42,116 nucleotides of DNA from Planctomycetota bacterium (GTDB lineage: Bacteria; Planctomycetota; SZUA-567; H5-PLA8), in assembly GCA_038227875.1 (NCBI GenBank), contig JBBRPR010000070.1, positions 1 through 42,116 on the forward strand. Reading direction: 5' to 3'. This document shows, in pieces, positions 3,387-23,900 of this stretch (the first letter of the stretch is position 1; each line of letters opens with the position of its first letter). The notes beneath the pieces were generated by a model, which worked only from the letters and a program-made list of their open reading frames with translations, was not told where the DNA came from and did not search any database. Made by a program: the position numbers and the translations under genes.

Positions 3387-3414
3387 ATCGTACGCTCGTT
3401 CGCCGCCGTTTCAA
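3387..3414 (-). promoter_or_regulatory. Sigma70-type promoter for tRNA-Glu
   Basis: Minus strand TTGAAA-N16-TACGAT, about 20 nt upstream of the tRNA. Confidence 0.6.
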
Positions 3415-3449
3415 TTCACATTCCGCGAATCGTTTCGCACCCTCGGGTT

Positions 3450-6400
3450 CTAGTGGCCAAACGTCCCGATCGCTCGCCGCACGACGTAGCGCTGCGTCGT
3501 GATCACTTCGTAAACTGCGTTGTCGATGTACAGCGTCACGCGTACTTTTCGGGTCTTGAGCTTGCCGGGCATCGCTGGCAGATCCTGATTCGGATCGGTT
3601 TCCGAATTCAACGCCTGCTGGAAACTGCCAAAGCCAATCTTCAGCGTGAACTGCCGCGCGCTCTTGCCGGGCTTCAGCTTGAAGACGTCATTGGCCGAGA
3701 ACGGCTGCAGGTTCGGGTCCAGCGAGTTGATGGCCCGCCCGGAGGCGTCCAGCTTGTACGCGCGCACGACATGGCCGACGTCCACCGACAGCGTCTGACC
3801 CGATGGATTGAATCCCGGCGTCAGCGGGAGGATTCCGCTGAGCTGGATCTGATCCTGATTGATCTGCGCGAAGTTCAGCGAGATGCGGATTTTTCGCAGC
3901 TTGAACGGAGTCTTGACGCCCGCGTTGACCGGCAGCAGGAACACCGACGTGACAGACTGCCCGTTGGCGTCGGTAACCGTAAGCGTTACGGTGTAGATGC
4001 TCGGCACGCCAAACAGATGTGTAACGGTACTGCCGCTGGCAGTTGTGCCGTCGCCGAAATTCCAGAAGTACGTCACACCGGTGGTGCTGACGGCGCCGGC
4101 GGTAAACACCACGGGCTGTCCGGGTACGGCAGGATTCGGCGTCGCCACCGGCGGACTGATGATGCTCAGGACTGCGACGTTGAACGTTCCCAGCGTCGCC
4201 GCGGCAAGGAGATTGCCGGTCGTGTCTTTCACCTGGTTGGCCAGCACCGCAATGGTGTAAACACCATTCGCCCCAGCCACCCATGAGCCTCCGGGAGCGT
4301 TGATCTGATACGTCGCCGTCACCGGTGATCCGGGAATGGACGGTACCGAACTCACGAACGTGGCGAGCTGGCTGAATCCATTGGGTCCGGTCACGAGCAC
4401 ATTGGAATTGCCGAACGTGGCCGGATTGATCGCGGCGTTGTCGGAGAAGATCACGGTGAACGTGTAGTGATTAGGATCGGACGCGTTGGTCACGTCCGGC
4501 GCGCTGCCGAGCCGCGCGATCGGCGCGGTCTGATCGAGTTGAATGGCGCCAATGTCGACGACATTCCCCGCTCGAGCGCGCGGATAATTAACGTCGCGCT
4601 GATCGGTCGTCAGCAGACTGGGTGAATTGAAAATGTCCGTGGTGTTGAGGCCCGCGCCGATGGCCGGACTTCCCGGCAAGACGGCGTGTGTTTCCGTTAC
4701 GCCGCCGTTGTTCTGCAGCGGTCCGAGCACCGGGTCCAATGGGCTCCCAGCCGTACCGATCTTGTTTCCCTGCGCGCCGTTGGAAATGCCGGAGACATTC
4801 GTGTCCACGCCGATCAGATTATTGGAACTTGTCGTGTCGATGTTGCCGCCCAGATCGTCGGGAGTGGCCGCCGCGATTCCGCTCTGGCTGGTGTTTTTCG
4901 CCGCAATCGTGCTCACCAGTAACTGGGATGGAGGGGGATTTGAATTGAAGGTATTGTAAACATAGGAGCCGCCACCCGAGGCATAACTGCCTGACGCGCC
5001 AATGGCGGAGACCGAATTGTTCACCACCGTACAATTGTAGATCTGGACGTTGCCGCTGGCGTAGATCCCGCCGCCGTAAGCACTGGCATACGCTGCAACA
5101 GTGCTGTCAGTCGCACTGACGCTGTTGCCGGAAATCGTGCTGTTTTGTATCGTGAGCTTGCCGCCCGAATAAATTCCGCCGCCCTGCGCATGTGCGCCGT
5201 TTGTGCCGTTGGAGGCTTGGGCAACATTGCCGCTGATGGTTGAATTCGAAATGTCGGCGTAGCCGAATACAGAAAGTCCTGCGCCGGCCGCGCGCGGCTT
5301 CGCGCCGCCCGATGCCGTCGCAGAATTTCCTGAGATGGTGCAGTTTTTGATTAACGCCAATCCGGAGAGGATGCCACCGCCGCTGTAAAGGGTCGAATTG
5401 CCAGAGGAATTGGTCGAGATCACCGCATTTCCCGTGAATGTCGAATTCGTGGCATATAAATAATAGGAAAATACGCCACCCGCAAACCCTCGCGGGCCGG
5501 ACGAACTGCATCCGGTGACATTGACGTTATTCAGCGTCAGGTAGTTGAACGAGAAGATTGCACCGCCCGCGCTGAGCTGTGCACCGGTAGTATGGCATCC
5601 AGTGATCGTCACGGTATCCAGCGTCAATTTGGCGCCGCCGTAAAAGCCGTAGTTGTAAAACTGCGGCGCGCCATTGATGCCACCGCCAAACGTGTCTGCA
5701 GCCCCATTAGCGATCGTCATACCGCTGATGGCCACGGTGGTGGTGGGATTGGCATTGAGGACAAAGATTCGCGAGGCACCCTTCGCATCGACCGTTAGCT
5801 TTGCCACGCCCGGCCCGCTGATTGTAAACGGACCGTCGATCAAAATATCGCCGGTCGTCACTGCGATGGCCTGGGGTGCAGCGAAAACCACCGGATCAAA
5901 CGTGATCGTGCTGGGCGAGTCAACAATCGTTCCTGCCGCCGCGCGCAGGCTGCCCGGACCGCTGTCGTTGGTGTTGGTTACGACCAGGGATCGCGCCGGC
6001 TGGACTTGCAAGGAACCGATGTCGATGCTTCCCGTCAGCGGGCGCGGAGCGCCGCGCTGATCGGTCGTCAGTCCCGCGGGATTCGAACCGGCACCCAGCG
6101 CTGGGCTGCCTGCATTCGGCAACAGCGACAACGTGGTTCCGCCATTGGGCAGCGGCGAGCCGAGTTGGGCCGCCTGACCCACGATGTTGGCCGTGTTCGC
6201 GCCATTCAATGCCGCGCCGGGCGAGACCTGAAACAACGAATGGTCGGCATTCAGCGTACCGTCGTAGCTCACACCATTAAAATGGTTGAATGCATCCGCT
6301 CCTGCCGGCGCGGTGTTGCCCGACAGGATTGTGCTCTGCAGCGTCACGGCAGGCGCCAGACTTGAAAGGTAAAGTCCGCCCCCCTTTACTGTCGCAGAGT

Positions 6401-7241
6401 TGTAGGCGACTGTGGAGTTGCGCATTGTCAGCGAGGAGGAATCAGCGTCGACACCACCGCCAACCTGAGTGGCGTGGCAACCCGAGATCGTGGAATTCTG
6501 AATGACGAGGGAGTTGTCCGCAAACACGCCGCCACCGTTCGCCGCAGTGCAATTGCGAATCACGCTTCCACTGATCAGCGTGGGTCCCGCGCCGACGCCC
6601 GTCAACACCCCGCCACCGGAGACAGTCGCGGTGCAATTCAACACTCTTGAATTGATCAGATTCAGAGCGCCGTTGCTGTAGATTCCCGCGCCGTTTTGCG
6701 CGGTACAGCCATTCAATGAAACCGAGTTTAGCGTCACGTTGGAATTAACGGCATAAATGCCGCCGCCCTTAAGGCCTGCCGCGCGTCCCTCGATTCTCAG
6801 GTTTGAGATCGAAACGTTCGAAGGGCCGCTGATATTAAATACCCGGCTTGTACCGGAATAGATGCTCATTCCGTTGTTGACCGCGCCGGTGATCGACATC
6901 GTGTTGGTAATCGGTAGATCACCGCTGGTCAGGAGGATGGTGCTCGGGAAAGGCAGATTGAAATTGATCGTGTCGCCCGCGGGATCCGCGTTGGCCTGCG
7001 TGATCGCCGCGCGCAGACTGCCCGGGCCGGTGTCGTTGGTGTTGGTGACGGTGATCGTCGCGGCTGAAGACCGGCGCGCCGTGCCGAGCAGGATCGCACC
7101 GCAGAACAGCGTCACGGCCGAGAAACGGAGCATTCCTCCCAGCGTTTGAGGCGTTTGCGCCTGCGCGCGGCGGACCGCCTTCGACTCGGGCTGGGATGTG
7201 CGGGTTGCGTCGTGCATGCGCGAAAAAACTCCGTGTCTCAC
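3450..7241 (-). CDS. Giant secreted beta-helix protein with two choice-of-anchor Q modules, Ig-like and PKD domains and a conserved C-terminal domain
   Basis: Signal-like segment ending SSA, VTNTNDxGPGSLRAA twice, GGGIY/GGAI repeats, NGG.T...L.PGSPA.GAG..TTDQR...DIG twice, PKD motif YFWNFGDG. The start is uncertain (7241, 7217 or 7133). Confidence 0.85.
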   Translation of the reverse strand: MRHGVFSRMHDATRTSQPESKAVRRAQAQTPQTLGGMLRFSAVTLFCGAILLGTARRSSAATITVTNTNDTGPGSLRAAITQANADPAGDTINFNLPFPSTILLTSGDLPITNTMSITGAVNNGMSIYSGTSRVFNISGPSNVSISNLRIEGRAAGLKGGGIYAVNSNVTLNSVSLNGCTAQNGAGIYSNGALNLINSRVLNCTATVSGGGVLTGVGAGPTLISGSVIRNCTAANGGGVFADNSLVIQNSTISGCHATQVGGGVDADSSSLTMRNSTVAYNSATVKGGGLYLSSLAPAVTLQSTILSGNTAPAGADAFNHFNGVSYDGTLNADHSLFQVSPGAALNGANTANIVGQAAQLGSPLPNGGTTLSLLPNAGSPALGAGSNPAGLTTDQRGAPRPLTGSIDIGSLQVQPARSLVVTNTNDSGPGSLRAAAGTIVDSPSTITFDPVVFAAPQAIAVTTGDILIDGPFTISGPGVAKLTVDAKGASRIFVLNANPTTTVAISGMTIANGAADTFGGGINGAPQFYNYGFYGGAKLTLDTVTITGCHTTGAQLSAGGAIFSFNYLTLNNVNVTGCSSSGPRGFAGGVFSYYLYATNSTFTGNAVISTNSSGNSTLYSGGGILSGLALIKNCTISGNSATASGGAKPRAAGAGLSVFGYADISNSTISGNVAQASNGTNGAHAQGGGIYSGGKLTIQNSTISGNSVSATDSTVAAYASAYGGGIYASGNVQIYNCTVVNNSVSAIGASGSYASGGGSYVYNTFNSNPPPSQLLVSTIAAKNTSQSGIAAATPDDLGGNIDTTSSNNLIGVDTNVSGISNGAQGNKIGTAGSPLDPVLGPLQNNGGVTETHAVLPGSPAIGAGLNTTDIFNSPSLLTTDQRDVNYPRARAGNVVDIGAIQLDQTAPIARLGSAPDVTNASDPNHYTFTVIFSDNAAINPATFGNSNVLVTGPNGFSQLATFVSSVPSIPGSPVTATYQINAPGGSWVAGANGVYTIAVLANQVKDTTGNLLAAATLGTFNVAVLSIISPPVATPNPAVPGQPVVFTAGAVSTTGVTYFWNFGDGTTASGSTVTHLFGVPSIYTVTLTVTDANGQSVTSVFLLPVNAGVKTPFKLRKIRISLNFAQINQDQIQLSGILPLTPGFNPSGQTLSVDVGHVVRAYKLDASGRAINSLDPNLQPFSANDVFKLKPGKSARQFTLKIGFGSFQQALNSETDPNQDLPAMPGKLKTRKVRVTLYIDNAVYEVITTQRYVVRRAIGTFGH

Positions 7242-7420
7242 AGGTGAAAATCGTTCTGTTCCAGCGTCAAACGCGAGATGGAAAGTGTACTCGGGGTGAC
7301 ACTTAACTTCAAACGTTCAATCGGTTCGTCACCTACAGAACCCTGAAGTTGAACGGTCTCAGTTCAATGTAACATTTGGGCTCACTGCACGGGGTGAAGT
7401 ACCACACCTTATTCATAGGC

Positions 7421-7450
7421 GAATGTTACAAAATGTTACATAATGTTACG
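7421..7450. repeat. Three 10-bp-period direct repeats of AATGTTAC
   Basis: gaatgttaca aaatgttaca taatgttacg in an AT-rich divergent promoter region. Confidence 0.7.
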
Positions 7451-7813
7451 CATTTTCAGGTGCTTGGTGTTTTCCGGTACAACAGCGTTGTGGTACCCTT
7501 TCCGACCACTTGAGCCCTGAGATCAGTCGGCAACTTTTACTCTTGGCGTGATCCCTCCCGAAATCCAATTATCTCGAGCGGCGACCCGAGCTCGGAAGAC
7601 CGCATGGTTTAATAATAGACCGTGGAATGGGATTGGTCAATTAATTAATACATAAATTTATAAAGTAGGTTAACCGCGCGTGCACGCTGCCTCGCTCTGC
7701 CCACGGCGGTCAGCGCGACCCTGTGCAGCGCGATCTTCACAAGCTACCCTCCGTAAGAAAATCGCAGGAAATCTTTCACTGGTTTTGTGATCGCTCACCG
7801 GGAAAATCTCAAC

Positions 7814-8818
7814 ATGAAGAAAATCAACCTGCTCATCAATCTGCCTGCCGGCTTTCACACCGCTCCGGTCCTCAAACCGACGTACGCGCGGCTGGCGAAG
7901 ATCGCCAATCTGCGCAAGCGTTCCCACAACGCCGGCACGGAAATCGCCGCCGATCTGCCGTGGGCCGATGCGATCATCATGTGGTCGTGGCCCGGCTATA
8001 CGCACGAACTGCTCGACCAGGCCACGCGCTTGAAATTCTCGGGCCATCTCGACATCTCGCAGAGCGGCGCACGCGTCGCGCTGGAACGCGGGCTGGCCGT
8101 CTCCGTCACGCGGCGCGCGTTTTCGCCAGCGGTTTCGGAAATGGCCCTGTCCCTGGTGCTTTCCACATTGCGGCAGACGTCCAATTACCACGCGCAGATG
8201 CGCGCCGGACGCGAACCGTGGATCGCGAAATTCCCCGACGAGATCCCGCCGCACGAACGTCAGCTCACCGGACGCGCGGTGGGCTTGATCGGCTTCGGCG
8301 CCGTCGGCCAGCGCCTCGCGGAGCTGCTCGCGCCGTTTCACTGCCAGCTGCGCATCTACGATCCGTTTGTGCCGCAGGAGGTGATCGCGAAATTCGGCGC
8401 CGAGCGCGTCACATTGAAAAGCCTGATCCGCTCCTCGGAGATCGTCGTTCTCTGCGCGGCCTCGAATCCCGGCTCGCGCCATCTGCTCGGCAAAGCGGAG
8501 ATCAACGCCTTTCGCAAGGATGCCGTGTTCGTCAACGTCGCGCGCGCTGCGCTGGTGGACACCGCCAGCTTGATCGCCCGTTTAAAGAAGAACGACATGT
8601 TCGCCGCGCTGGATGTCTTCGACAAGGAGCCGCTGGACAAGTCTTCGCCGCTGCGCAAGCTCCCCAACGCGTTCCTGACGCCGCACCGCGCCGGCGGTAT
8701 TCTCGAATCCGTGCAGCGCATCGTTTCGATGCTCGCCGACGATCTGGAAGCGCACCTCGCCGGCAAGCCGAGGGCGTACGCGCTCCACGAGAAAATGATC
8801 CCGGCGCTCGACGCGTAA
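7814..8818 (+). CDS. D-isomer-specific 2-hydroxyacid dehydrogenase family protein
   Basis: GLIGFGAVG Rossmann motif, FVNVARAALVD, ALDVFDKEP, LTPHRAG. Confidence 0.92.
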   Translation: MKKINLLINLPAGFHTAPVLKPTYARLAKIANLRKRSHNAGTEIAADLPWADAIIMWSWPGYTHELLDQATRLKFSGHLDISQSGARVALERGLAVSVTRRAFSPAVSEMALSLVLSTLRQTSNYHAQMRAGREPWIAKFPDEIPPHERQLTGRAVGLIGFGAVGQRLAELLAPFHCQLRIYDPFVPQEVIAKFGAERVTLKSLIRSSEIVVLCAASNPGSRHLLGKAEINAFRKDAVFVNVARAALVDTASLIARLKKNDMFAALDVFDKEPLDKSSPLRKLPNAFLTPHRAGGILESVQRIVSMLADDLEAHLAGKPRAYALHEKMIPALDA

Positions 8819-8823
8819 CGGCG

Positions 8824-9144
8824 CTACAGGCCTGACGTCCGTTCGACGCGGGCCACGCGCAGTTGAAAGCCTGAATACCATTCCGTGCGTCCGCGGAACT
8901 GCGCGGCAAGATGCTCCGCGTTCTGTTTCCACGCGCGGATCGATTCCTCATCCTTCCAATACGAGACCGTAATGCCAAAACCGTCGCTGCCGCGCGCGCT
9001 TTCCACGCCCAGATAACCGGGCTGCTGCGCGGCCAGTTCTTCCATGCGGTCGGCCACCGCGCCGTAACCGCCCTCCCCCGCTGTGCGCTGTGAACTGAAA
9101 ATCACCGCATAGTACGGCGGCTCGGGCAATTTCGAGAAGGCCAT
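8824..9144 (-). CDS. Antibiotic biosynthesis monooxygenase (ABM) family protein
   Basis: PPYYAVIFSS...QQPGYLGVESAR..GITVSYW..EESIRAWK...EH..AQ..GR..WY. Confidence 0.9.
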   Translation of the reverse strand: MAFSKLPEPPYYAVIFSSQRTAGEGGYGAVADRMEELAAQQPGYLGVESARGSDGFGITVSYWKDEESIRAWKQNAEHLAAQFRGRTEWYSGFQLRVARVERTSGL

Positions 9145-9204
9145 GCTGCCTCGCTCCTCCATTCTAATGGGAATCTGGTCGATATAGATTAACGTGGAAC
9201 AATA

Positions 9205-10224: not shown

Positions 10225-10231
10225 AGGCGCG

Positions 10232-10666
10232 CTACGTCATGTCGGGATCATGATCGTCGCGAAGACTATGGAGAAAATCAGGATCATCGCGAACGAGTCG
10301 CGAAACTGTGGCAAGGGCTTCGAGTGTCCGGCCGCTGGGCTTGGCGCCGCTGAGCATCAGAAAAACAACAAACACCGGTCCGCCATCAAGTGCCTTCCAG
10401 TCGAGTCCTTTCACAGATACGCCCAGAGAACACATCATCTCGGCGCTGAACGGCAATCGCGCGTGCGGGATCGCCACACCGGAGCCAATTCCCGTGCTTC
10501 CATACTTCTCGCGCTCAACTAACGCTTTTACACAGTCGTCTACGCGATCCGCAGATAACGCATCGACTTTCACTAATTCGAGCACCAATTCGCGAATCGC
10601 TCCGTCGCGCGTCGTCGCGCGCAGTCGAATCGGCCTATCCATCGGAAATTCATCCCTGAGTTGCAT
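10232..10666 (-). CDS. PTS EIIA domain protein (Ntr/fructose type)
   Basis: EREKYGSTGIGSGVAIPHAR with the phospho-His; DWKALDGGPV. Confidence 0.88.
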   Translation of the reverse strand: MQLRDEFPMDRPIRLRATTRDGAIRELVLELVKVDALSADRVDDCVKALVEREKYGSTGIGSGVAIPHARLPFSAEMMCSLGVSVKGLDWKALDGGPVFVVFLMLSGAKPSGRTLEALATVSRLVRDDPDFLHSLRDDHDPDMT

Positions 10667-10768
10667 GCCGGAATTCTCGCGCGTTCACGGACGAATTCCA
10701 TGGGTATTCTGTCATCCGATTCTGCTCTTGAACGAATACTCCATCCCGCTTCTGATGAGTGGGTGCGA

Positions 10769-11737
10769 ATGACGAATCCCGCTTTCCTGCTCAGCTCACT
10801 CCTGGTCCTGCTGATACTGCTTGCCGGTTGCGGCGAGCCTTCCGTCGCACTCAACGCACCCGCGCTACCATCCCCCGCCCCGTCCGCCCAGCCTGCTCAT
10901 GCCCGCTCCGGCCCGCACGGCGGCGCGCTGATCCCGCTGGGCAACGATCACGTGGAGATCCTCTACGAAGAACCCCACTCGCGGCTCGTCGTCAGTTTTT
11001 TCAATGCCGACGCGACGTCGCTGAAAGGCGTGAACGCCGCGGCTCTTTCCGCGCAATTCAAGGTCTCTCCCGACGGACAATTTCAGACTCTGACGTTTGC
11101 ACCGCTGCCGCTTGAAGGCCAGTCGTCCGAGCTCTGCTCGCGCTTCGCGGCGCCCGCACCGAACGTGAAATCTGAATTCGAAATCGTGCTCCGGCTGCGC
11201 AGCGGCGATGCCGTCTTCCGCGCGCACGCGCTGCTCGATCCAGCCACGATCGCCAGCACCAAATTCGTCTGCCCGATGAATTGTTACGACGGCAAGCTCT
11301 ATCCGCTGCCCGGCAACTGTCCCAAGTGCGGCATGAAGCTGGTTGAAGCGACGAGCGGCGCGCAGCCGCATTCCGATCACCGCCCGCGCCACGGCGGCGT
11401 CTTTTTCATGTCCGCCGACAACTGGCATCATCTCGAAGGCGTCTTCGCGCCGCCCGACGAATTCCGTCTGTATTTTTACGACAACTTCACGCGCCCAATG
11501 GACGCCGGCAGCTTCGACGGCACCGTCGAATTTGAAAGCAAAATCGATGCGGCTGAAAAACCCGCATCCGCGACGCAGAAGCTTCAGCCCGGACCCGGCC
11601 GCGCCTATCTTACGGTCAAAGTTCCACCCACGGCTGCGCTCCCGCTCCGCGTCACCGTACACGTCAAACTAAAACCGGAACAGCCCCCTGAACTGTTCAA
11701 CTTCTCATTCTCGGACTGGGCTCCGCCCAAACCCTAG
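10769..11737 (+). CDS. Heavy-metal-binding lipoprotein
   Basis: Lipobox LLAGC; GPHGG...HVE and PRHGG...HHLE repeats; CPMNC...PGNCPKCGMKL metal-binding motif. Confidence 0.8.
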   Translation: MTNPAFLLSSLLVLLILLAGCGEPSVALNAPALPSPAPSAQPAHARSGPHGGALIPLGNDHVEILYEEPHSRLVVSFFNADATSLKGVNAAALSAQFKVSPDGQFQTLTFAPLPLEGQSSELCSRFAAPAPNVKSEFEIVLRLRSGDAVFRAHALLDPATIASTKFVCPMNCYDGKLYPLPGNCPKCGMKLVEATSGAQPHSDHRPRHGGVFFMSADNWHHLEGVFAPPDEFRLYFYDNFTRPMDAGSFDGTVEFESKIDAAEKPASATQKLQPGPGRAYLTVKVPPTAALPLRVTVHVKLKPEQPPELFNFSFSDWAPPKP

Positions 11738-11760
11738 CATTCCCCGCGCGGGTTAGTCGT

Positions 11761-14700
11761 TTACTTTTTAATTGCGCTCAGTTCACGCTCGTCTGCCATT
11801 TCTGGAATGACTCGGCAAAACCGCAGGAACAGCGCCGGCGTGGCGGCAAAATCGAGCAGCGTTGTCGTCAGCAGTCCGCCCACGACCACCAGCGCCATTG
11901 GATGTAAAATCTCGCGGCCCGGCTGGCCACGACTGATGATCAACGGGATCAGCGCCAGCCCGGTCGTCAGCGCCGTCATCAGCACCGGCGCCACGCGCTC
12001 CTGGCTGCCGCGCTCGATCGTCGAACGGCTCAGCGGCAAGCCCTCGCGTCCGATCAGGTGGTAGTAATGCGAAATCAAGAGCACGCCGTTGCGCCCCGCA
12101 ATGCCGGCCAGCGTGACGAATCCAATTACGCTCGCCAGCGAGAGCGTTTCATGCGCCAGCGCCAACGCGAGCACGCCGCCGATGAATGCGAACGGGATGT
12201 TGATCAACACCAGCAGCACCGGCGCGAGCGCGCGGAAATGGGCGAACAACAGCAGCACCGCGATGCACAGCGCCAGCATCGCCGCGGGCAATAGAAAACG
12301 CGTGGCCTGTCCGCGCGCTTCGTATTCGCCGCTGAACTGCACGGAATAGCCAGACGGCAGCGACGGCGTTACGTTCTGCTCCACCGCCTGCTTCATCGCG
12401 TTCACGGCGCCACCCAGATCGCGCCCGGCCACACTACAGGCGATCGTAATCTGGCGCGCGCCGCCTTCGTGGCGAATCTCCGAGGGGCCGTCCGTTTCAA
12501 TTACATCGGCGACATCCGCCAGGCGCACAAACGCGCCACTCGGCGAGACCAGCGGCATTTCGCGCAGGCGCTCCGGAGATTGCCGTACGTTTTCCGCCGA
12601 CCAGAGCAGCACGTCGCTGGGCTGCCGTGCGCTGAGTGCCGGCGCGATGAGCTGGCCGTTCAGCGCGGTGCCGAGCATCTCCGCCACACCATTCGCGGTG
12701 AAACCGTACTGCGCCAGCGCTTCGCGGTTCAGCCGCGGCTGCAGGCGCGGCACGGGCATCGGGCGATCGTTGATCACGTGCGTCACGCCGGGAACGCTAC
12801 GCACGGAAGTCTCCACGCGCGCGGCCAATCGCCGCAGCGTTTCGACATCGCCGCCGCGCAGCTTGATCACAACCGGCGACTTCACGCCCGACAACAGATG
12901 ATCGATGCGATGCGTGATCGGCTTGCTGACCGAGACCGCCAGCACCGGGACGCCGCGCAGCTTTTCTTCGATCTCACGCAAAACGATGTCGCCGGAACGC
13001 AACACGGCGGGCCGCGACCGACCGAGCACCGGCGGTGATTCCGCGTTGCCCCAGAACGTCACGTCGAGTTCCGAACTGTGCAGGCCTTCGGCGTGTTCAT
13101 CGAGTTCCGCGCGCGCGGTCCGGCGGCCGGTCGTGCGCACTTCCGGAATGCCGAGCAGCATCTCTTCCACTTTTGTGGCGAGACGATTGGATTCCGTCAG
13201 CGAAATTTCCGGCCACGCGCGCAGTTGGATCGTCAGCGTCGATTCACTAAAGGGAGGAAGGTAATCGCGTCCCAGTCTCTCTGCCGTAATTCCCGCCAGC
13301 AGCAACGCGACCGCAAGCACACCGAGCACCGTAATCGGGCGCGGAATGCAGAGCGCGTAAAGCCACCGCGCCGCGCGCTTGAAACCGCGCAGGATCAGTG
13401 CTTCGCCTTGCGGCGCCGACCGGCCCAACAGCAGCGAGGCGAGCGCCGGCGTCAGCGTCAGCGCGACGAGCATCGACATGAAGATCGAAACGATGTACGC
13501 GGACGCCAGCGGCGCGAAGAGCCGTCCATCGAGGCCCGGCAGGAACAGCAGCGGCAACAGCGCCAGCAGCACCAGCGCCGTGCCGTAGACGATCGCCGAA
13601 CGGATCTCCATCGACGCGCTGAAAATGTGCGCGAGCAATCCCGAGGGATGGACTCGCGTATGCGCTTCGGCGATGCGACGTTGAATGTTCTCGACGTCGA
13701 CGATCGCATCGTCGGCCAATTCGCCGATCGCGATGGCGATGCCGCCGAGCGTCATGCAGTTGATCGACTGTCCGAACAGTTTGAACACCGCCGCCGTGGC
13801 CAGCAGCGAGACCGGCATCGCGATCAGCGTCACCAGCACTGGTCGGAAGCGGAGCAGGAAGAGCACCAGGATCGATGCCGCCAGCACCGCGCCGCCAGCC
13901 AGACTTTCGCTCACGTTGCCGACGCTGGAGCGGATGAAATCCGCCTGCCGGAAGAGATTCGGTTCGAGAGTGAATCCGCCCGGCAGGCTGGCGCGCAATT
14001 CGTCGAGCGCCCGATCGACCTCTGCGGTCACGGCGCGCGTGTCGGCTTTCGCCTGTTTCTGCACCGCGACAATCAGCGCCGGCTTGCCGTTCAACGACGC
14101 ATCGCCGCGCGGCAGTTGCGTGCCCGCGCGGAGGGTCGCAACATCACCGACCGTTATCGGGACACCGTCGGTGTTCTTGATCAACGCTCCGGCGAGCGCA
14201 TCCATTGACGCGACTCCGGAAACCGCGACAGCCGTTTCCCGCTCGCTTTCGACCACTGCGCCGCCCACGCTGCTTCGGGCCGTGGCTTGCTGCAGCGCTT
14301 CTTTCAATTCGCTGAACGTCACGCCGTGTTCGCGCATCGCCTGCGGATCGGCGAGCACCTGCCACTGCGGCTTGCGGCCGCCGATCACGGAAATCTGCGC
14401 GACGCCGGGCAGCGCGAGCAGTTTCGGCCGCAGCGTCCAATCGGCGAACGTGCGCAACTGCGTCAGCTGCGCGTCGTCGCTGCCGCCAGGGACCACGCCG
14501 ATCAGCATGATCTCGCCCATCAGCGACGCGTCCGCGAGCATCACCGGCCGGGCGTTGCCGGGCAGCCTGGCCGCGAGCTGATCGAGTCGTTCCTGGACAA
14601 CCTGGCGGTTGCGGTAGACGTCGCTGCCCCATTGGAATTCAATGTTGATCAGCGAAAACCCGCTGCTCGAGACGGAACGAATCGTCGCCGAGCCGGCTGA

Positions 14701-14928
14701 TCCTGAGAGCGCAGCCTCCAGCGGCGTGGTGATCTGCGCTTCAATGTCTTCCGGCGGCAGTCCCGGCGCTTCGGTCATCACCGCAACCGTGGGGCGGTTG
14801 AGATCGGGCAGCACGTCAACGGGCAATTCCAGCGCGGCGTAAAGTCCGTACGCGCAGACCAGCACGGCGATGGCGATTACAAACGCGCGGCGCTGGAGCG
14901 AAAATGCGATGAGGCGATTGAGCATCAT
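11761..14928 (-). CDS. CusA/CzcA-family heavy-metal RND efflux permease
   Basis: LPVDVLPDLNRPTV, GELADDAIVDVEN in TM4, ERVAPVLMTALT; 1055 aa. Confidence 0.95.
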   Translation of the reverse strand: MMLNRLIAFSLQRRAFVIAIAVLVCAYGLYAALELPVDVLPDLNRPTVAVMTEAPGLPPEDIEAQITTPLEAALSGSAGSATIRSVSSSGFSLINIEFQWGSDVYRNRQVVQERLDQLAARLPGNARPVMLADASLMGEIMLIGVVPGGSDDAQLTQLRTFADWTLRPKLLALPGVAQISVIGGRKPQWQVLADPQAMREHGVTFSELKEALQQATARSSVGGAVVESERETAVAVSGVASMDALAGALIKNTDGVPITVGDVATLRAGTQLPRGDASLNGKPALIVAVQKQAKADTRAVTAEVDRALDELRASLPGGFTLEPNLFRQADFIRSSVGNVSESLAGGAVLAASILVLFLLRFRPVLVTLIAMPVSLLATAAVFKLFGQSINCMTLGGIAIAIGELADDAIVDVENIQRRIAEAHTRVHPSGLLAHIFSASMEIRSAIVYGTALVLLALLPLLFLPGLDGRLFAPLASAYIVSIFMSMLVALTLTPALASLLLGRSAPQGEALILRGFKRAARWLYALCIPRPITVLGVLAVALLLAGITAERLGRDYLPPFSESTLTIQLRAWPEISLTESNRLATKVEEMLLGIPEVRTTGRRTARAELDEHAEGLHSSELDVTFWGNAESPPVLGRSRPAVLRSGDIVLREIEEKLRGVPVLAVSVSKPITHRIDHLLSGVKSPVVIKLRGGDVETLRRLAARVETSVRSVPGVTHVINDRPMPVPRLQPRLNREALAQYGFTANGVAEMLGTALNGQLIAPALSARQPSDVLLWSAENVRQSPERLREMPLVSPSGAFVRLADVADVIETDGPSEIRHEGGARQITIACSVAGRDLGGAVNAMKQAVEQNVTPSLPSGYSVQFSGEYEARGQATRFLLPAAMLALCIAVLLLFAHFRALAPVLLVLINIPFAFIGGVLALALAHETLSLASVIGFVTLAGIAGRNGVLLISHYYHLIGREGLPLSRSTIERGSQERVAPVLMTALTTGLALIPLIISRGQPGREILHPMALVVVGGLLTTTLLDFAATPALFLRFCRVIPEMADERELSAIKK

Positions 14929-15002
14929 ATGAGGTATGCTACTCTAATCGTCGCAGTGAATTCGCGAAAGCCGATTAGCCATTTACAGGCTCGGAAGTCA
15001 AC

Positions 15003-16310
15003 ATGACGCCCCGTTCCACTTCCATTTCCTGGCTGCGCACCATCGCCCTCGTCGGGTGCTCGACGGCGGCGGCATTTATGCTGCTCCATGAAATCAGCGA
15101 CACGCGCGTCAGCGCGCATGGCGAAGAAGATTCGGCAGTCAGCGACAACGACCTCGACGTCCCGCGCTCAGTCTCCGCGGAGACGGCAAAATTCATCGGA
15201 CTGAAAACCGTCGAGCCGTCGATGCGGCCGCTGGCGGACTCCGTGGAACTCACCGGCCGCGTGAAAACTCCGCCGGAGGCCCGGCGCAAGGTCTGCGCGC
15301 GTTTCGCGGGAAAAGTTGTCGCGATAAACAAGCACGTCGGCGATGCCGTGAAGCCCGACGACGTCGTCGCCGTGCTCGAAAGCCCCGAGATTGCGCGCAA
15401 TCAGCTGGAGGCCCACCGCTCCGAGGCGGAGATTCAGCGGCTCCTTCTTGAAATCGAGAAGGTGAAAGTCGAAGCCGAGGGGTTGAAGCGCACCGTTCGC
15501 GTCAGCGAACTCCAGAACGAAGCGGCAAAAGCCGAACTCAAGCGCGTCGAAAGCCAGCCCAATCCGGCCGCCAATTTAGCCGCCTTGGAACTGGCCAACC
15601 GGCAGGAGTCCGTGACGCGCACGACCGGCGACCTGCGGCTCAACACGCTGCAGCTCAACCTCGCCGAGACCACCGTCGCCAATCTCACCAAGCAGGCCGA
15701 CGCGATTCGCGCCGTGATGAAAATTCAGCTCGCGTTCGGCAATTCCGAAAACGGCACGCTCAAACTGACCGCAGACGGCTCTGGCGTGGTGACCGCTTGC
15801 CTCGCGGTTCCCGGCGAATGGGTGCAGACCGGACAAACGTTGTACGAACTCGCCGATCGCGCAGCGGTGCAGATTGAGGCCGACGTTCCCGAAGCGCTGT
15901 TGCCGCGCGTGCGGGATCGCAAATCCGACCACGCGACTGTTGCAATAAAAGGGAGCGAGCAATCCATCGATGCCACGGCCGGCGCGCTGGGCGCGAGCAT
16001 TCACCCCGTGCGCCGCACCGCGAGTCTGTATCTCACCGCGCCGAACGCCAACAACGCGCTGCTAGATGACGCACGCGTGGCCGTGACGCTGAACTTGAGC
16101 GAGACGCAAAGCGTGCTGACCATTCCGCGATCAGCCGTGTTGCGGCGTGGGCCGGTGCGATTTGTGTTCGTGAAGAATGGCGACGCTTTCCTGAAGCAGG
16201 ACATTGCGATTGGGCGCACCGACGGCCAATTCGTCGAAGTGAAAGCCGGTCTCGCGCCGGGCGACACGATCGTCAGCGAAGGCGCCGAAGCGCTGCTTCA
16301 TCTGCGATGA
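15003..16310 (+). CDS. RND efflux periplasmic adaptor (CzcB/CusB-like)
   Basis: N-terminal anchor and AHGEED, lipoyl-like halves flanking a coiled coil, LTIPRSAV...VFVK...VEVKAGLAPGDTIVSEGA. Confidence 0.9.
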   Translation: MTPRSTSISWLRTIALVGCSTAAAFMLLHEISDTRVSAHGEEDSAVSDNDLDVPRSVSAETAKFIGLKTVEPSMRPLADSVELTGRVKTPPEARRKVCARFAGKVVAINKHVGDAVKPDDVVAVLESPEIARNQLEAHRSEAEIQRLLLEIEKVKVEAEGLKRTVRVSELQNEAAKAELKRVESQPNPAANLAALELANRQESVTRTTGDLRLNTLQLNLAETTVANLTKQADAIRAVMKIQLAFGNSENGTLKLTADGSGVVTACLAVPGEWVQTGQTLYELADRAAVQIEADVPEALLPRVRDRKSDHATVAIKGSEQSIDATAGALGASIHPVRRTASLYLTAPNANNALLDDARVAVTLNLSETQSVLTIPRSAVLRRGPVRFVFVKNGDAFLKQDIAIGRTDGQFVEVKAGLAPGDTIVSEGAEALLHLR

Positions 16311-16619: not shown

Positions 16620-16625
16620 ACGCCC

Positions 16626-19600
16626 TTACTTCTTCGCGGTGCCGCCCTTGCCCTTCTTGGACTTGTAGTTGAGCTTCACCACCGAGCCGGCGACGTAGGT
16701 TGCGGTCGTGGTCTTCAGCGCCACGGCCATCGGCAGCGTCACGGACGTGCCTGTGGCCGGCGTGGTGATGTCGGTCAGGCCGAAGGTCGTCAGCCCGGCC
16801 TTCAGGTTTTCGCCGCGCACGCCGAACGTCACCACCACGGAGCTCGAACCCTTGGTCGACGTCTTCACCACCAGCGTCGTGGAACTGCGCGGCGCTTTCG
16901 TCGGTCCGCCGAAGGTCAGGTTGCTCTTGATCACATTGCCGATCTGGACCGTCGCCGTACCACCAAGCGCAGGTGTGCCGCTGGGCAGCGTGAAGCGCAG
17001 GGTCACCGCGATGAAATCGCCGGAACCCGTCGGCACCACTTTGATCTGCGCCTTGTCGACCGAGAGCGGCGAATTCACCGGCGCGCTGGTCGCATCGTTG
17101 GGATCGGTGCCGGCCAGCGTCTCGAGGAAGTCGGGCACACCGTCGCCATCGGAATCCATCGTGAACGACGAGACCACCGCGATCACCAGTGTCGAACTGA
17201 CGGTCCCCGCGCTGTTGGTCGCGGTGATGTGAACCATGTACGTGCCGGCCGTCGTCGGCGTGCCGGAGATCAGATTGCCATTCAGCGTCAAACCGTCGGG
17301 GAGATTCGCGGCCTGGAATGTGATCGGCTGCGTGCCCGTCGCGGTGATGGTGTAGGCGAACGAGATGCCGGCGATCGCGGAGACCGTCAGCGGGCTGGTG
17401 ATCACCGGAGTCGGGAACGCCGGAGCCGGGCCGAAGAGCGAGAACGTGGACGTGTTGCCGGCCGTATCCGTCAGCGTCGCGGTCAGATTCATGCTGGCCG
17501 ACGAAGTCGTATCGATCTTCCAGATGCCGCCGATGCAGGAACTGCGGCCGAGCAGGCTGCCGCCCTGGTCTTCGAGATCGTTGAATACTTCCACCGCGCC
17601 GTCGACGGCGGCGTGGCCTTCGACGTGGATGCCGACGCTGTCACCCGTGGCGCGGCCGCCGGTTCCGGTGCGGTAAACCAGATCAAAGATCGGCGGCTTG
17701 ATGCCGTTGTTGCTGCCGTCGAAGAGCGCGATGCCGCCCTTCTTATTGGAGCTGATGCCGTTGTGCTTGGACGAATTGAATTTCGAGGTCGTCGCGCGGA
17801 CTTCGACGCCGTTGCCGCCGTTGTAGCCGATCGCGTTGCCCTGGCCGGTATCGCCGCCGACCTGTGTGCCGTTGGTGCCCTTCGAGAGGAAAATTCCCGC
17901 GCTGCCGTTGCCGGCAGAACTACGGCCGCCGAGCGTGTCGCTGAGATCGCCGCTGTCGCGCGTGCCCACGTTGATACTGCGCCCAGCCGTGATCAGCGCC
18001 GACGCGCCGACGATGTTGCCCATCACCAGATTGTTGTTCGTGCCCGCGCCGGAGACGGTGACGCCTTCGTAGAGATTGCCGCTGATCACATTCGCTTCGT
18101 CGGCAAGAGTGCTGCCGACTTGGTTGTTGCTACCGCTCTGTTGGATCAGGATGCCGGCGAGATTGGGCTGCGAGGAGCTGCCCGACGCATCCAGTCCGAT
18201 CCAGCAGCCCTTGACAATATTGGACGAGCCGCCGGCGACTTCAATCCCGAACGCGCCGTTGCCGGCAATGCGCAGGCCCTGGCCGTTGGGACCCGGGCCC
18301 GCGGCCGGCAGCGCGCGACTGCCGCCGATGATGTTCGAATTGCCCGTGACGTAGATGCCGTCCTTGGTGAAGCCCACGAGCGTCAGTCCCTGCACCGTAT
18401 TGCTGTTGGAGACCAACTGCAGTCCGTTGGCCGAGCCCGCGCCGCTGCCGTTGACCGTCACGCGCACGTTGGACGCGTCGATGGTCACGTTCCCCTTATT
18501 CATGTCGGGAAGCTGGCTGAGCACATTGATCACCGTCGCGGCGTTCGAGTTGACGAGATTGAAGACGGTCGTGTCGAAGAGAATCGAATCGCCGCTGCGC
18601 GCATCGTTGAGCGCCATGCGCAGCGAACCGGCGCCGGAGTCGGCCGTCGTGGTGACGATCCATTGGCCCAGCGCGCCGCCGAGAATGGTGAACGGCTGCG
18701 CGATCGACGTTCCGCCGCCGGGCGCCGTGTTGACCACCGTCACATTAGCGGTTCCGGCGGTGGCGACGTCCGAAGCGGAAATCGTGGCCGTCAACTGCGT
18801 GGTGCTGACAAACGTGGTCGGACGCACGGAGCCATTCCAGTTCACCTTCGAACTGGTGACGAAGTTCGTGCCGTTGACTGTAAGCATAAAGGCGCCCGCG
18901 CTGCCGGCGATCGCCGCGTCAGGACTGGTGAAGGAGATCGTCGGCACCAGGCTGTTGACGGTGATCGAGATCGTCCCGGTCTTGCTCAGCCCGAACGTGT
19001 CCTGCGACTTGAAGGTGAAGCTGTCGGGTCCGGAATATCCCGGCGTCGAGGTGTAGACGAGATTCGGTGCGGTGCCGCTGATCACGCCGTGTGTCGGATT
19101 GGTGATCGATGCGCCGGGGAACGTCACGCCCGCGTCGTCGATGGTGACGGACTGCAGGGTGATCGCCAGCGGATTGGATGCGTTGGCGGCGATGGGCGTG
19201 GAGACCGGTTCAGATTTCGGATCGTAAATTTCCACGGCGCTGGAGAACCCGCCCACAAATCCGCCGGTGACGAGAATGCGGCCGTCGGCGAGGCTGGTCA
19301 GTTGATGGCGCGTGTGCGGCGTCAGCGTGCTGCCGGTCAGCCCCCACGTGCCGCCGCTGACGGGATCGTACAGATCGACCTGCGCAAACGAACCGTCATG
19401 ACAGCCCACGGCCAGCACTTTGCCGTTGGAGAGCATGCCAATGCGGTGTTCGGTGCGAGCCTTGGTCATGCTGCCGGTGGGAAGAAAGGTGTTGCCGGCG
19501 ACCGAGTACAGTTCGGTGCTGGGAAACAGACCGTTGTTGAAGCCGCCGATCATCAGCACATTGGCGCCACCATTGACGACCACCGCCTGGTGCCGGAAGC

Positions 19601-20885
19601 GACCTGTGATCATCTGCGCGCTCAGTGCAATGAACGAGCCGACACCGGAATTCGCCGTCGGGTCGTACAGTTCAGCGCTGGTGTAGAAGACATTATTGGC
19701 GCTGACATCGGTGCCGCCCGCGATCAGCACGTTGTTGGTCGAGAGCAGCGTGGCGGTGAATTGCTGGCGCGCGGTGTTCATCGAACCGCTGACGGACCAG
19801 GTTCCCGTCGTTTCGTTGTAGCGCTCGGAAGTCCCCGCTGGCGCCAATTCGCCACCCATCACCAACACATCCGGATTAACCGCGGGCGTAGCCAGAAGCA
19901 CGGCGCGGGCATTGGTGCGCGCGGTGCCCATCGAGCCGGTCGGCGTGAAAGTGTTCGTGGCTGGATTGTAGAGGTCGGCGCTGAGCAGGAGTGATGAACC
20001 ATTGGTACCGCCAGCGAGCAGCACCAAGCCGTTGCCCATCAACACGGCGACGTGCCCCGAGCGCGGTGAGGACATGTTGTTCGCTGTCGGCGTCCAATTT
20101 CCGGTGGACGGATCGAACACTTCCGCCGTGTTCAGCGTGGAGGAGTTCATGCCGCCGGCGACGAGAATCTTGCCATTCGGCAGCAGTGTCGCGGTGTGAT
20201 CGGCGCGCGCGGTACCCATCGGATTGACCGACGACCAGCTCGGATCGATCGCGACCGGGAAATCCAATCCACGCAGGTCGGCGCTGAGCGTCAGGCGCGC
20301 CCGGCCGTTCAACATCGGTTCAAGATTCACATTCAAGCGGTCGCCACAACGCAGCACGCGGCCCTTGGCGTCCTTGCCTTCCGGCGCGCTGATCTGCATG
20401 CGCGGCATGTTGTGTGCATCGACGAAGGCCACCGCGCCGTTGCTCTGCACCAGCGGTCGGAGGTCGCCGATGCTCAGTTCCCACGACCAGGACGAACTGT
20501 CGACCGGCCGGCGCACGTACATGAATTCCTCGGTCTTGCCGGGCATCGAGCGGTAGGAGACGTCGCAGGAATCAAACCCGTTGGCGTAGATCAGCGAACC
20601 GTCTGGCGCTTGCGTCGCTTGGCTGGTTTGAGCATCCAAGGGACGGACGGAGACCTGCGCGCCGCCGGCGCTCACCGTCAATGTATCGTCGAAGCGCGCT
20701 GGGAATTTTGTCTCGACCGTTTGCGGAGCGTGTTTTGCTGCCGCGCTGGGGTAATAGCGCTGCAACGCCGACGCGGTCTCCGCGGCGGAGTGCTCCGTCT
20801 TCTGAAGCCTTGCCGTGAATCCGGCAACAATCAGGGCCGCCATTACCAGGATTGCCTTTGTTTTCATACTTCGAATTTCAAACAC
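16626..20885 (-). CDS. Giant secreted kelch-repeat protein with Ig-like, IPT/TIG, beta-helix, putative-Ig and Ca-binding motifs and a conserved C-terminal domain
   Basis: GGAGG RBS before GTG 20885, N-domain ending FPVAIDP, kelch repeats R..HTATLL.NGK.LV.GG...[29 protein letters not shown]...GTDP. Confidence 0.87.
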
Positions 20886-20922
20886 GCAGTCGTCCTCCGT
20901 AGAACATCATTGGAAATTGAAA

Positions 20923-23900
20923 TTATCGCGTCGCGCTGCCGGACTTACCCTGGGTCGCCTTGTATTTCAATGCCGCGTCGCCGCCGCAGTAGAACGTGCC
21001 GGAATCGGTCTTCATCGTCACCACCACCGGCACATGAACCGTGGTCGAGACCGTCGCATTGATCAGCCCGTTGGCCGCCAACGCGTCTTTGAAATTCGAA
21101 TTCTTCACCGTCAACGTCACAAAGAACGACGAGGAACCTTTCACCGCCGCTTTGATGGCGATGGCGGCGCTGGGTCCCGCGGGACCCTTTGCGCGAGGCA
21201 ATTTGAGCTTGGAAGCCGCGGTCATGTTGGCGAAGCTCGCTGCGCCAAATTGCACGCTGACCACCGCGTTCTGAGCGCTCGTGCCATCCGGCAGCGTCAG
21301 CGTGAACATCGCACTCAGTGCATCCCCGCTGGCGACGGCAAAATTCAGCTTCACGGCTGCCTTATCGACTGAGAGCGCCTGCAGCGGCGACGAGACAATC
21401 ACGAGGTCGATTGAATCAGTGCCGAACGCGTTGCTCGCCGTGACGTGAACCACGAACGTGCCCGAGCCGAATGTCGCGCCGGTGATCGTGTCGCCGCTGA
21501 GCGTCAAGCCGACGGGAAGATTGGTGGCGTCGAAGACGATCGGCTGGTCGCCGGTCGCCGTGATTGCGTACGAGAATGGCGCACCGACGGCGGTTTCAGC
21601 CGTCAGCGGACTGGTGATCAGCGGAGAAACGCCGGTGACCGCGGGTGCTGCCGCAACAGTAATGGTGGGTCCGGTTCCTGTAATCCCGCCCGCGTCGCTG
21701 GCGCTCACGACGTAGGTCACCGCGCCGGAGGGACTCGTCGAGAGCACCACCGTCGCCATGCCGGCGTTATTGGTGTCGCTGGTGGGCGTGGAGAGAAATC
21801 CGTTCGCGCCGGTCAGAGACCAGGTCACGGTCGTTCCAGAAGTCGTGACGGCATTGCCGCTGGCATCGATTAGCTGGGCACTTACGCGCACCGCAGTGCC
21901 GGCGCTGACGGACGTGCTGCTGGCACTGACGACGTACTTCGCCGCCGGGCCGCTGAGCGTACTAATAAGGGGTGAAACTCCAGTGGACGCGCCCGTGGTC
22001 GCCGACACCGTTCCGGAAGTTCCCGAGATCGTCGTTGCCGTGAGCAGAACCGTGGCAACGCCCGCCGCATTGGTCAGGCTGGTTGGCGTCGCAAGATTGC
22101 CGATGGCGCCAGTCGGAGTCCACGTCACAACCTGTCCGGCGGTGGCGACGGCATTGCCGTTGATGTCGACGAGTTGCGCCGAGACGGTCACCGCACCGCC
22201 CACCACGGGAGACGTGGTACTGACGCTGACGGTGTACGCCGACGCCGCGCCGGTCTGCGACGTAAACGTCGCGGCCGTTCCAGTGATCGCCAGGCCGTCC
22301 GTCGCCGTCAGATTGTACGCTACATTGGCCTTGGGTCCGGTGGTGAAATTCACGCTGACCTGACCCGACGCGTTGGAGGTGCTCGTCCCCTGCGCGAACG
22401 CGCCGCTGGCGTCGGAGCTCCAGATGATCACGATCCCCGGCGTGGCGACGTTGTTCCCGTTCACATCTTTAATCTGTCCGGAAACGGCCACCGTGCCACC
22501 CGCGACCGGGTTGGTCGGCGTGACAATCAACGGACATTGCACCGCTGTGCCGGCGATGCTGGTAAACGAAACCGATCCGACGTGCGCGCCTTCGGTGGCT
22601 TTGACGGTGTAGAGCGTGCCGGCCGTGGTGGAGGTCGTGTACGTCACCGTCGCCAATCCGGAAACGGTATTGCTGCTGAGACTGGAGAAACTTCCGCCGA
22701 CGCCGGCCGTGAGGCTCCAGTTCACTACCAGTCCGCTGGTCGTCAGTGCGTTGCCAAAGGAATCGGTCAGCTGCGCGTTGACCGTGACGCCGCTGCCGGC
22801 AACTGGCAATGAAGTGCTGGCGGTGACGATGTACTTGTTGGCCGGGCCGGGATTGACGGTGATCGTTCCCGTGCTGCCCGTGTTGGTTCCGTCTGTCGAG
22901 GTGAGGACCAGGCTACCCGCGGTGGTGCTGGCGGTGAAATTTACGGAGGCCAGGCCGGAGCCATTCGTCACGGAGGTCGGGCTGGTGAACGTACCGCCAA
23001 CGCCGGAGGTGCCCCACGTCACCGTCTTCACCTGCGAAACCGGATTGTTATACGTATCGGACAATTGCGCGGTCACGGCATTGCCGGCGCTGCCGACGGT
23101 CATGGAACTGGCCGCGGTCATCACGTATTTCACCGGGACGTCTGCTTGAGACGTGATGTTGATGAAGCCCGTGTGCGGCACCGTGTCCGTGGCCGTAATC
23201 GCGCTCAACCCGGCGCTGGTGCTGGGCGTAAAGGTCAGCGAGCAGTGTCCGGACGAATCGGTCGTGGTGGGACTGGTGGTGAACGTGCCGCCCTTGCCGG
23301 GGGCCGTCCACGTCACCACCAAGCCGGAAGTCGGAACGGGGTTGTTCAATGCGTCCGAGAGCTGCGCGTCGGCGGTGATGGCCGTGTTGACCGTCGGCGT
23401 CGTCGATGAAACCGTCACGATGTACTTCGTCGCCGGACCGGGATTGTTGACAATCAAGAGCGTGCCGTTGGCCGTGCCGTCGGTGGCCGTGACGGTGATG
23501 CTGCCGGACGTGTTGCTCGTTTTGAAACTTACCGAAACATTGCCGCTGGCGTTGGTCAACTGCGCCGTGGACGGCGTAAACGTGCCGCCGGGAGCGCTGG
23601 CCGAAAACGTGACGCTCTGCCCAGCCTGCGGGAGCGCCGTGCCGCCGCCGTCTGCCAACTGCGCCGTCAAGGTGATCGTCTGCCCCACAGTATAGGGTCC
23701 GGCCGGAACAGCCGTAACCAGGTACTGAGCAAACTTGGTCGTGATCGCTGCGCTGGTGCTTGTATACGGAGCATCGGTGGCCGTGACGGTTTCCGTGAGT
23801 CCGGCGGTCGTCGATGAAGTGAACGTCACCGATGCGAAACCCGCCACGGTGGTGCTGGTCGGCGAACCGAACGTCGCGCCCGAGGCGCCGTTGCTGTGCG

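Follow-up and report, generated by a model that had tools for sequence, protein, structure and literature searches.

Three proteins encoded in a 42,116-nucleotide stretch of a Planctomycetota genome (GenBank assembly GCA_038227875.1, contig JBBRPR010000070.1), here called the window, end in tails of about 150 residues that belong to a single domain family not described before. The proteins, P0001, P0002 and P0003, carry different passenger domains in front of the tail. We established that the tail is distributed as expected of a tag for sorting or anchoring: one tail on many passengers, placed last, on exported proteins and in a restricted lineage. Its most likely role is that of a common tag by which exoproteins are held at, or directed to, the cell surface.

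Kinship of the Three Tails

The original prediction, made from the sequence of the window, was that three signal-peptide proteins with differing passengers end in related tails, those of the kelch (P0002) and invasin (P0003) proteins sharing a series of motifs and that of the choice-of-anchor Q protein (P0001) a weaker pattern. We found the three genes, the differing domains and a signal-peptide-like start in each of P0001, P0002 and P0003, and the predicted tail positions lay close to those defined by profile (Table 1). The P0002 and P0003 tails were aligned by BLASTP at 63.5 bits (E 2e-18, 53 of 153 positions identical), and the motifs noted for the kelch and invasin proteins were present in this alignment. 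The P0001 tail showed no significant pairwise BLASTP match to the P0002 and P0003 tails (E 17 and 23, respectively), and profiles were therefore needed to link it to them.

Profile searches were seeded from each of the three tails and iterated on the six-frame open reading frames (ORFs) of the genome, taken as stop-to-stop frames of at least 80 residues (53,153 in the genome) in place of curated gene calls. The P0001 tail was matched at 4.4e-28 by the profile seeded from the P0002 tail and at 1.4e-26 by that seeded from the P0003 tail. The kinship of the choice-of-anchor Q tail was thus upheld at the profile level, although the weaker pattern by itself was insufficient to show it. A failure of this first tail to align had been named as a reason to give up the prediction, and was avoided at the profile level by these matches; likewise, the tails matched no described domain and were terminal in position, as described below. 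The run seeded from the P0001 tail gathered 105 ORFs, from which the P0002 and P0003 tails were absent at the threshold of the run; these two tails are among the most divergent members, at the edge of the family. The three seeded runs had 83 ORFs in common, with a union of 109. AlphaFold models of the P0001 and P0002 tails displayed the same strand order and one short helix. Each tail had also been predicted to follow a PKD or immunoglobulin (Ig)-like spacer, which was confirmed by Pfam for P0001, weakly by Pfam for P0002, and by eye only for P0003.

The Tail Family in the Genome

The genome assembly comprises 9.34 Mb in 176 contigs and is 88% complete, with 4% contamination. A profile of the 109 tails retrieved 110 ORFs with default HMMER filters. 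Since several PKD-bearing giants retained about 120-180 unexplained terminal residues, we suspected that tails had been missed, and the search was carried out with the filters off. This gave 123 ORFs with a tail, one copy each. The default filters had lost 13 true tails, all on very long repetitive proteins, indicating that the filters have to be switched off for counting terminal domains on giant proteins. The 123 frames amount to 136,485 codons, or about 4.4% of the genome DNA.

The domain ended no more than 12 residues from the stop codon in 111 of the 123 ORFs, whereas in the remaining 12 the tail was followed by another 152-270 residues. This extra module showed a weakly similar strand pattern in the five that were aligned, and no Pfam family was found in it in any of the 12 proteins. 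Six of the 12, encoded on contigs C10, C3, C43 (two), C87 and C1, belong to one paralogous family of about 600 residues, in which a signal peptide and a tail-like domain are accompanied by another, unassigned module (about 170 residues). Ig-like motifs were seen by eye in the alignment of these six paralogues, and no Pfam family scored above threshold. The 12 proteins were considered as possible machinery and were rejected, as the extra module matched no Pfam family and six of them simply form a paralogous family.

A signal-peptide-like start, with a hydrophobic h-region behind a possible start codon, was found in 98 of 110 ORFs, and the rest were mostly fragments or had unclear starts. The tails had been predicted to contain no transmembrane helix, LPXTG, PEP-CTERM or autotransporter barrel. 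In agreement with this, 116 of the 123 tails lacked any 19-residue window with a Kyte-Doolittle mean of 1.6 or above, LPxTG was present in a single tail (sortase itself was not searched for), and PEP in the last 45 residues was present in none. No autotransporter or intimin-invasin barrel family was matched by P0001-P0003 or by 40 tails scanned against Pfam, and the structural models were sandwiches. The genome-wide profile search proposed along with the prediction thus returned tails that are numerous, C-terminal and borne by proteins with signal-peptide-like starts.

Some tail genes are possibly interrupted (C100:8796-10449, C100:15150-16925, C9:202439-202876 and C6:187479-187769), the interruptions being a pair of ORFs overlapping in different frames, an in-frame stop between the PKD part and the tail, or a TGA inside two matches. 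These could be pseudogenes, assembly errors or cases of read-through. The tail at C100:15150 is nearly identical to that of a 6232-residue giant on C34.

Occurrence in Planctomycetota

When the profile was run against 1.84 billion representative proteins, 2,821 were matched at E<=1e-3, 2,153 at E<=1e-10 and 502 at E<=1e-30. A word-index homologue search had given 12 matches, was too insensitive, and was replaced by this full hidden Markov model (HMM) scan. In 149 of the best 150 representatives, a copy of the tail lay no more than 12 residues from the end of the protein.

The DnaG protein of the window is 52-72% identical to those of Planctomycetota assembled from metagenomes of lake sediment, peat and soil. 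The tail was present in 17 of 41 related genomes, this genome included. Within the same family it was found in 14 of 16 other genomes, the two tail-free genomes being each 91% complete, and the number of copies per genome varied from 1, 3, 11, 16 and 19 through 37 up to 72-94, scoring being capped at 94. Both genomes of a sister family carried the tail, in 6 and 11 copies, and none of the 22 genomes from the remaining families of the order and class did. Of 301 genomes sampled evenly across the phylum, 29 gave a match at E<=1e-6, ten of them a single one. Besides this genome and six others from its own family, the positive genomes came from seven other families with 1-10 matches each, where 12 candidates were scored per genome. 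At 20 loci of low-copy genomes belonging to distant planctomycete families, 20 of 21 tails were terminal. One member is annotated as coming from a Candidatus Binatia assembly; this is one of the small proteins of the P0149 and P0059 type described below, and it indicates that the family is not strictly confined to Planctomycetota. Among the genomes searched, the tail is greatly expanded in a single planctomycete family and has a patchy occurrence in the rest of the phylum.

Passengers and Architecture

Passengers were examined in 49 representatives, taken in order of E-value, starting with methionine and at least 300 residues long. These included TIG, cadherin, LamG, beta-helix, DUF5650, PATR, RCC1, DUF11, NHL and other propellers, DUF4394, GSDH, YHYH and FG-GAP, and 8 of the 49 had no passenger family at all. 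PKD was present in 30 of the 49, and in 14 a TSP3 repeat immediately preceded the tail; a frequent ending was PKD, sometimes a calcium-type TSP3 repeat, and then the tail. A similar arrangement was seen in this genome, where 42 of 110 proteins had a PKD-like domain whose end lay no more than 60 residues before the tail, 20 of 109 had a TSP3-like motif upstream of the tail, and 84 of the 108 PKD-bearing ORFs carried a tail.

Among the best 150 representatives, six had two tandem copies of the tail. The same set contained small proteins consisting of a signal peptide and the tail only (P0055, P0129 and P0163), and two others, P0059 and P0149, in which a cysteine-rich piece of about 25 residues lies between the signal peptide and the tail. 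P0001 and P0002 bear passenger domains of the choice-of-anchor type. In other lineages, choice-of-anchor domains, a name given by NCBIfam, are paired with varied C-terminal anchors.

Known Families and Fold

The last 155 or so residues of P0001, P0002 and P0003 matched no Pfam or NCBIfam entry. We scanned 40 tails singly against Pfam and NCBIfam at E<=1, and found no Pfam family in more than one member and no NCBIfam family in more than two. Among the Pfam matches there was no SLH, GW, LysM, CWB2 or OmpA-like family, no carbohydrate-binding module (CBM) or lectin family, and no consistent match to Ig-family HMMs; sequence matches to SafA, Mfa-like and BslA were seen in one tail member each. 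The best match of the tail profile to all PDB sequences had an E-value of 1.1. In public databases, members are named 'hypothetical protein', 'PKD repeat protein' or 'IPT/TIG domain-containing protein', and the closest clusters in the ESM Atlas are 'hypothetical', with low recognition. Literature searches, at the level of titles and abstracts, brought up no description of such a domain.

AlphaFold modelled the P0002 tail with a predicted local distance difference test score (pLDDT) of 91.0 and a predicted template modelling score (pTM) of 0.86, and the P0001 tail with a pLDDT of 90.0 and a pTM of 0.85. Both models are beta sandwiches of about ten strands and one helix, as anticipated from the beta-rich sequence, and the final residues form a strand of the fold with high confidence. 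A Foldseek search with a tail model gave no match at E<=1e-3. In a wide fold search of 48,161 chains, the best Z score was 7.0, for the FlaF sandwich, and none reached 8; the Sap S-layer protein scored 6.4 and archaellins 5.5-5.8. When the top 999 Foldseek matches were rescored by fold, the best Z score was 6.0, mostly for V-set Ig domains (CTLA-4, nanobodies), with FN3 also among the best. Since Z scores of 5-7 are background for any sandwich, these values point to the Ig-like fold class and to no specific solved relative. The listed fold matches contained no type IX secretion system (T9SS) C-terminal domain (CTD), and neither a cohesin nor a CBM was conspicuous among them. Taken together, the tail is predicted by these models to be a V-set-like Ig beta sandwich whose last strand is the C-terminus of the protein.

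Charge and Conserved Ending

The tails had been described as basic, and this proved to be a consistent property. The median isoelectric point was 10.15 in 102 terminal tails, with 99 above 9, in contrast to 4.74 in 97 passengers, with one above 9. The net charge per 100 residues was +7.2 in the tails as compared with -2.1 in the passengers. Lysine made up 9.0% of the tails and 1.8% of the passengers, whereas arginine was at 2.2% and 2.0%, respectively, in DNA of about 60% GC. The positive charge of the tail stems from lysine alone. Columns with at least 50% lysine or arginine were found at profile positions 13, 63, 67, 78, 81, 146 and 151, and the conserved lysine columns fall in the first, sixth and last strands. 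Aspartate occupied profile position 26 in 96% of cases. The family ends in a motif of the type Y-x-A-K-x-G-K-x-G-x-A-K, and the terminal residue was lysine in 62 of the 102 tails and lysine or arginine in 70.

Search for Linked Machinery

No gene family was convincingly enriched within 6 kb of the tail genes in this genome. Extracytoplasmic function (ECF) sigma and anti-sigma genes were rejected as tail-linked regulators, with 34 lying near tails as compared to 26.1 expected, from 148 genes. Other recurrent neighbours, namely kinases, PhyH, Gfo/Idh/MocA, ABC ATPases, LacI, a GNAT family and FGE-like proteins, were not enriched either. Among 40 neighbour clusters, which had been chosen for lying near tails, the smallest uncorrected p was 0.004. 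Ten pairs of tail genes were no more than 3 kb apart, one of which is a single gene split by a frameshift. In the 20 loci from low-copy genomes, with their 21 tail genes, no neighbour family was common to more than three loci.

Exosortase (PF09721) was not found in the genome, and its control was positive. SprA (TIGR04189) gave no match in the 88%-complete genome and was silent in 14 control genomes as well (PorU and PorV were not searched for), and the T9SS-type tail PF18962 gave no match genome-wide, with the control genomes silent too. As the controls for SprA and the T9SS tail were silent, these two blanks are weak.

Other Features of the Window

The three tail genes and their parts are listed in Table 1. 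A database copy of P0001 with 1255 residues implies a start at the ATG at 7217, and another candidate ATG lies at 7133; the true start is probably one of these internal ATGs. In P0003, an insert of about 100 residues between the Big_1 repeats (residues ~240-345) contains a CXXCH motif at 24586-24600 on the minus strand and matched no Pfam family. This adhesin-like protein may carry the insert for the binding of haem c.

Table 1. Positions of the tail genes and tail domains in the window.
Feature	Position	Strand	Description
P0001 gene	3450-7241	-	Signal peptide, two choice_anch_Q, PKD (3939-4151), tail
P0001 tail domain	3453-3929	-	Stop codon 3450-3452; profile envelope reaches the last residue
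P0002 gene	16626-20885	-	Signal peptide, kelch propeller (~19206-20240), Big_9, CoaZ repeat (18684-18947)
P0002 gene, C-terminal part		-	PKD-like stretch 17175-17414 (weak), TSP3 repeat 17091-17156, tail
P0002 tail domain	16629-17090	-	Stop codon 16626-16628; profile match 4e-33
P0003 gene	20923-25371	-	Signal peptide, nine Big_1/Invasin_D3 repeats, putative Ig spacer, tail
P0003 tail domain	20926-21390	-	Stop codon 20923-20925; BLASTP and profile

The gene at 1768-3309 on the plus strand encodes a large serine recombinase with Resolvase, Recombinase and zinc-ribbon domains, and 140 bases separate its end from the 3' end of P0001. The GC content is 0.54-0.55 in the first 4 kb (1-4000) as compared with about 0.58-0.65 in the remainder of the window, and positions 1-4000 may be the edge of a mobile element. 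A resistance-nodulation-division (RND) pump (ACR_tran, 11761-14928, minus strand) and a membrane-fusion protein (HlyD_D23, 15003-16310, plus strand) are encoded divergently and do not form a single operon, and a protein with a heavy-metal-binding domain is encoded at 10661-11737. Three consecutive genes at 26613-31889 on the plus strand resemble a signalling cassette, their products being a TonB-dependent receptor, a YfiR/HmsC-like DUF4154 protein and a hybrid histidine kinase with CHASE8. Next to mreB (33175-34302) lies the gene of an ATP-dependent DNA ligase (31908-32993, minus strand) that bears a WGR domain at its N-terminus.

Discussion

The closest parallel to the tail among known systems is the CTD of T9SS cargo (Por_Secre_tail PF18962/TIGR04183; CHU_C), which is likewise an Ig-like sandwich at the C-terminus of many unrelated signal-peptide exoproteins, present once per protein, restricted to a lineage, and found on tens to more than 100 cargo proteins per genome. 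A lysine-rich last motif is a T9SS feature too. However, T9SS CTDs have roughly 70-100 residues and seven strands, whereas the tail has about 150 residues and ten strands and occurs in Planctomycetota. The extreme lysine bias, the occasional tandem copies and the tail-only proteins also set it apart, and none of 40 tails matched Por_Secre_tail, TIGR04183 or CHU_C at E<=1.

Tripartite sorting signals are the second comparison, and comprise LPXTG with sortase, PEP-CTERM with exosortase, GlyGly-CTERM and MYXO-CTERM (Haft papers PMC1569441, PMC3237569, 10.1101/2023.06.07.544157). They share with the tail the use of one C-terminal tag on many passengers, choice-of-anchor families included, but span only about 25-35 residues, made up of a motif, a membrane helix and a basic cluster and served by a dedicated cutting enzyme; the tail is instead a folded domain of 150 residues. 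A third group is that of the non-covalent anchors, such as the GW modules of Listeria InlB and Ami, SLH domains and CWB2. Like the tail, these are C-terminal, basic and sometimes tandem; they are self-sufficient and hold diverse secreted proteins on an anionic envelope polymer. Their folds and sequences are unrelated to the tail and they are described mainly in Gram-positive bacteria. The PKD and bacterial Ig-like spacers found beside the tail belong to the same broad fold class, but are internal, repeated and part of the acidic passenger, in contrast to the single, terminal, larger and cationic tail.

The original prediction took the tails for part of a lineage-specific secretion or surface-attachment system with machinery elsewhere in the genome. 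What this builds on, a single unassigned, lineage-restricted and terminal tail on many unrelated signal-peptide passengers, has strong support; a dedicated system with machinery elsewhere was not borne out, and several results lean away from it. Considering the blank neighbourhoods, the graded copy numbers, the tandem copies and the tail-only proteins, an autonomous binding or anchoring module fits at least as well. We tentatively lean towards the hypothesis that the tail is a self-sufficient cationic retention module which binds an anionic polymer of the cell's own envelope. This hypothesis is favoured because, in addition to those four features, the copy numbers extend down to single-copy genomes and the charge contrast between tail and passenger is specific to lysine. 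In such a mechanism, acidic adhesin- or enzyme-like exoproteins exported by Sec would carry the tail as their standard last module; after export from the cytoplasm, the folded cationic sandwich would bind an anionic envelope polymer (lipopolysaccharide, capsule or similar) non-covalently, and the diverse passengers would thereby stay displayed on the cell. We infer the surface location, the binding partner and the dispensability of dedicated machinery, with the charge only as the pointer to binding.

Several points weigh against a retention module. The near-absolute terminal rule is more readily understood for a signal dependent on a free C-terminus than for a binding module, which could be placed anywhere, and even the 12 exceptions end in a weakly similar-looking module. 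The conserved G-K-x-G-x-A-K ending with its final lysine or arginine could be a recognition motif. Machinery need not adjoin its cargo, so the blank neighbourhoods are weak evidence. The signal peptides were called by a crude hydrophobicity scan and not by a trained predictor. Finally, the binding partner is hypothetical, and the proteins might end up in the periplasm or in the medium instead of at the cell surface.

For these reasons, namely the terminal rule and the conserved ending, we keep alive a second explanation, which we consider rather unlikely but the main rival: the tail may mark cargo for an outer-membrane system of export or attachment, so far undiscovered and working on T9SS logic, in which a translocon or shuttle encoded elsewhere recognises the sandwich, and possibly removes it or exchanges it for a lipid or glycan anchor. 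The terminal position in this genome (111 of 123), among the representatives (149 of 150) and in distant families (20 of 21), the single copy per protein in this genome, and the conserved ending with its preferred terminal lysine all agree with this explanation, as does its scale, since more than 100 cargo proteins on about 4.4% of the genome DNA resemble the cargo of known sorting systems. Choice-of-anchor domains occur among the passengers, and no T9SS tail, SprA or exosortase was found as an alternative, the T9SS controls being silent. However, no candidate machinery emerged, with neighbourhoods blank here and in the 20 low-copy loci, and the copy number is graded from 0 and 1 to at least 94 within one family instead of being all-or-none. 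Tandem copies and tail-only proteins are ill-suited to a pure export tag, and a recognition signal needs no extreme lysine bias. In its fullest form, in which the tail would be the cargo signal of a secretion or attachment pathway peculiar to the outer membrane of Planctomycetota, an independently evolved counterpart of T9SS with more than 100 substrates per cell in some lineages, this explanation is a little more doubtful still.

The Ig-like sandwich, which is of the broad kind seen in many binding modules, together with the strong positive charge and the tandem copies, could also suggest an outward-facing carbohydrate-binding or adhesive module, with pectin-like or sulfated polysaccharides, humic matter, extracellular DNA or mineral surfaces as ligands; the source genomes are assemblies from soil, peat and sediment metagenomes. 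We regard this as improbable, as none of the 40 members matched a CBM or lectin family, and the binding modules of enzymes sit at either end or internally, whereas the tail is nearly always last. Moreover, the passengers are mostly adhesin-like repeats and not enzymes, and a second adhesive end would leave them untethered to the cell.

More improbable is co-assembly, in which a shared surface lattice or fibre would be built by pairing among the tails of different proteins or between tails and the double-module proteins. Weak, scattered matches to pilin, archaellin, S-layer and hydrophobin sandwiches, the tail-only proteins with a signal peptide and the second module behind the tail in 12 proteins are compatible with it, but the matches are no better than those to any Ig-like model, Z scores below 8 being common background, and like charges of about +11 per tail should repel one another. 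A covalent tether, in which peptidoglycan or another polymer would be cross-linked to a lysine of the tail (for example the last residue), in the manner of Braun's lipoprotein and its C-terminal lysine, would suit the enrichment of lysine but not arginine and the 62 of 102 tails with lysine last, but is highly improbable, given that the other 40 tails end in another residue, that the terminal residues are modelled as an integral strand, that no enzyme is linked to the tails, and that giant adhesin-like passengers suggest a site outside the wall.

With a self-sufficient retention module as our tentative preference, the tail bears on how planctomycetes place many giant exoproteins on the cell. 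Pfam and NCBIfam hold no family-specific planctomycete sorting or anchoring domain of such a kind, and none was found in the titles and abstracts searched. The tail marks a defined exoproteome of uncultured planctomycetes from soil, peat and sediment, and a tail profile would help to annotate about 2,800 protein clusters whose present names are either 'hypothetical' or refer only to a passenger domain. As a confidently modelled, lysine-rich sandwich of 150 residues, it offers a handle on the question of electrostatic retention versus a new secretion pathway in these bacteria.

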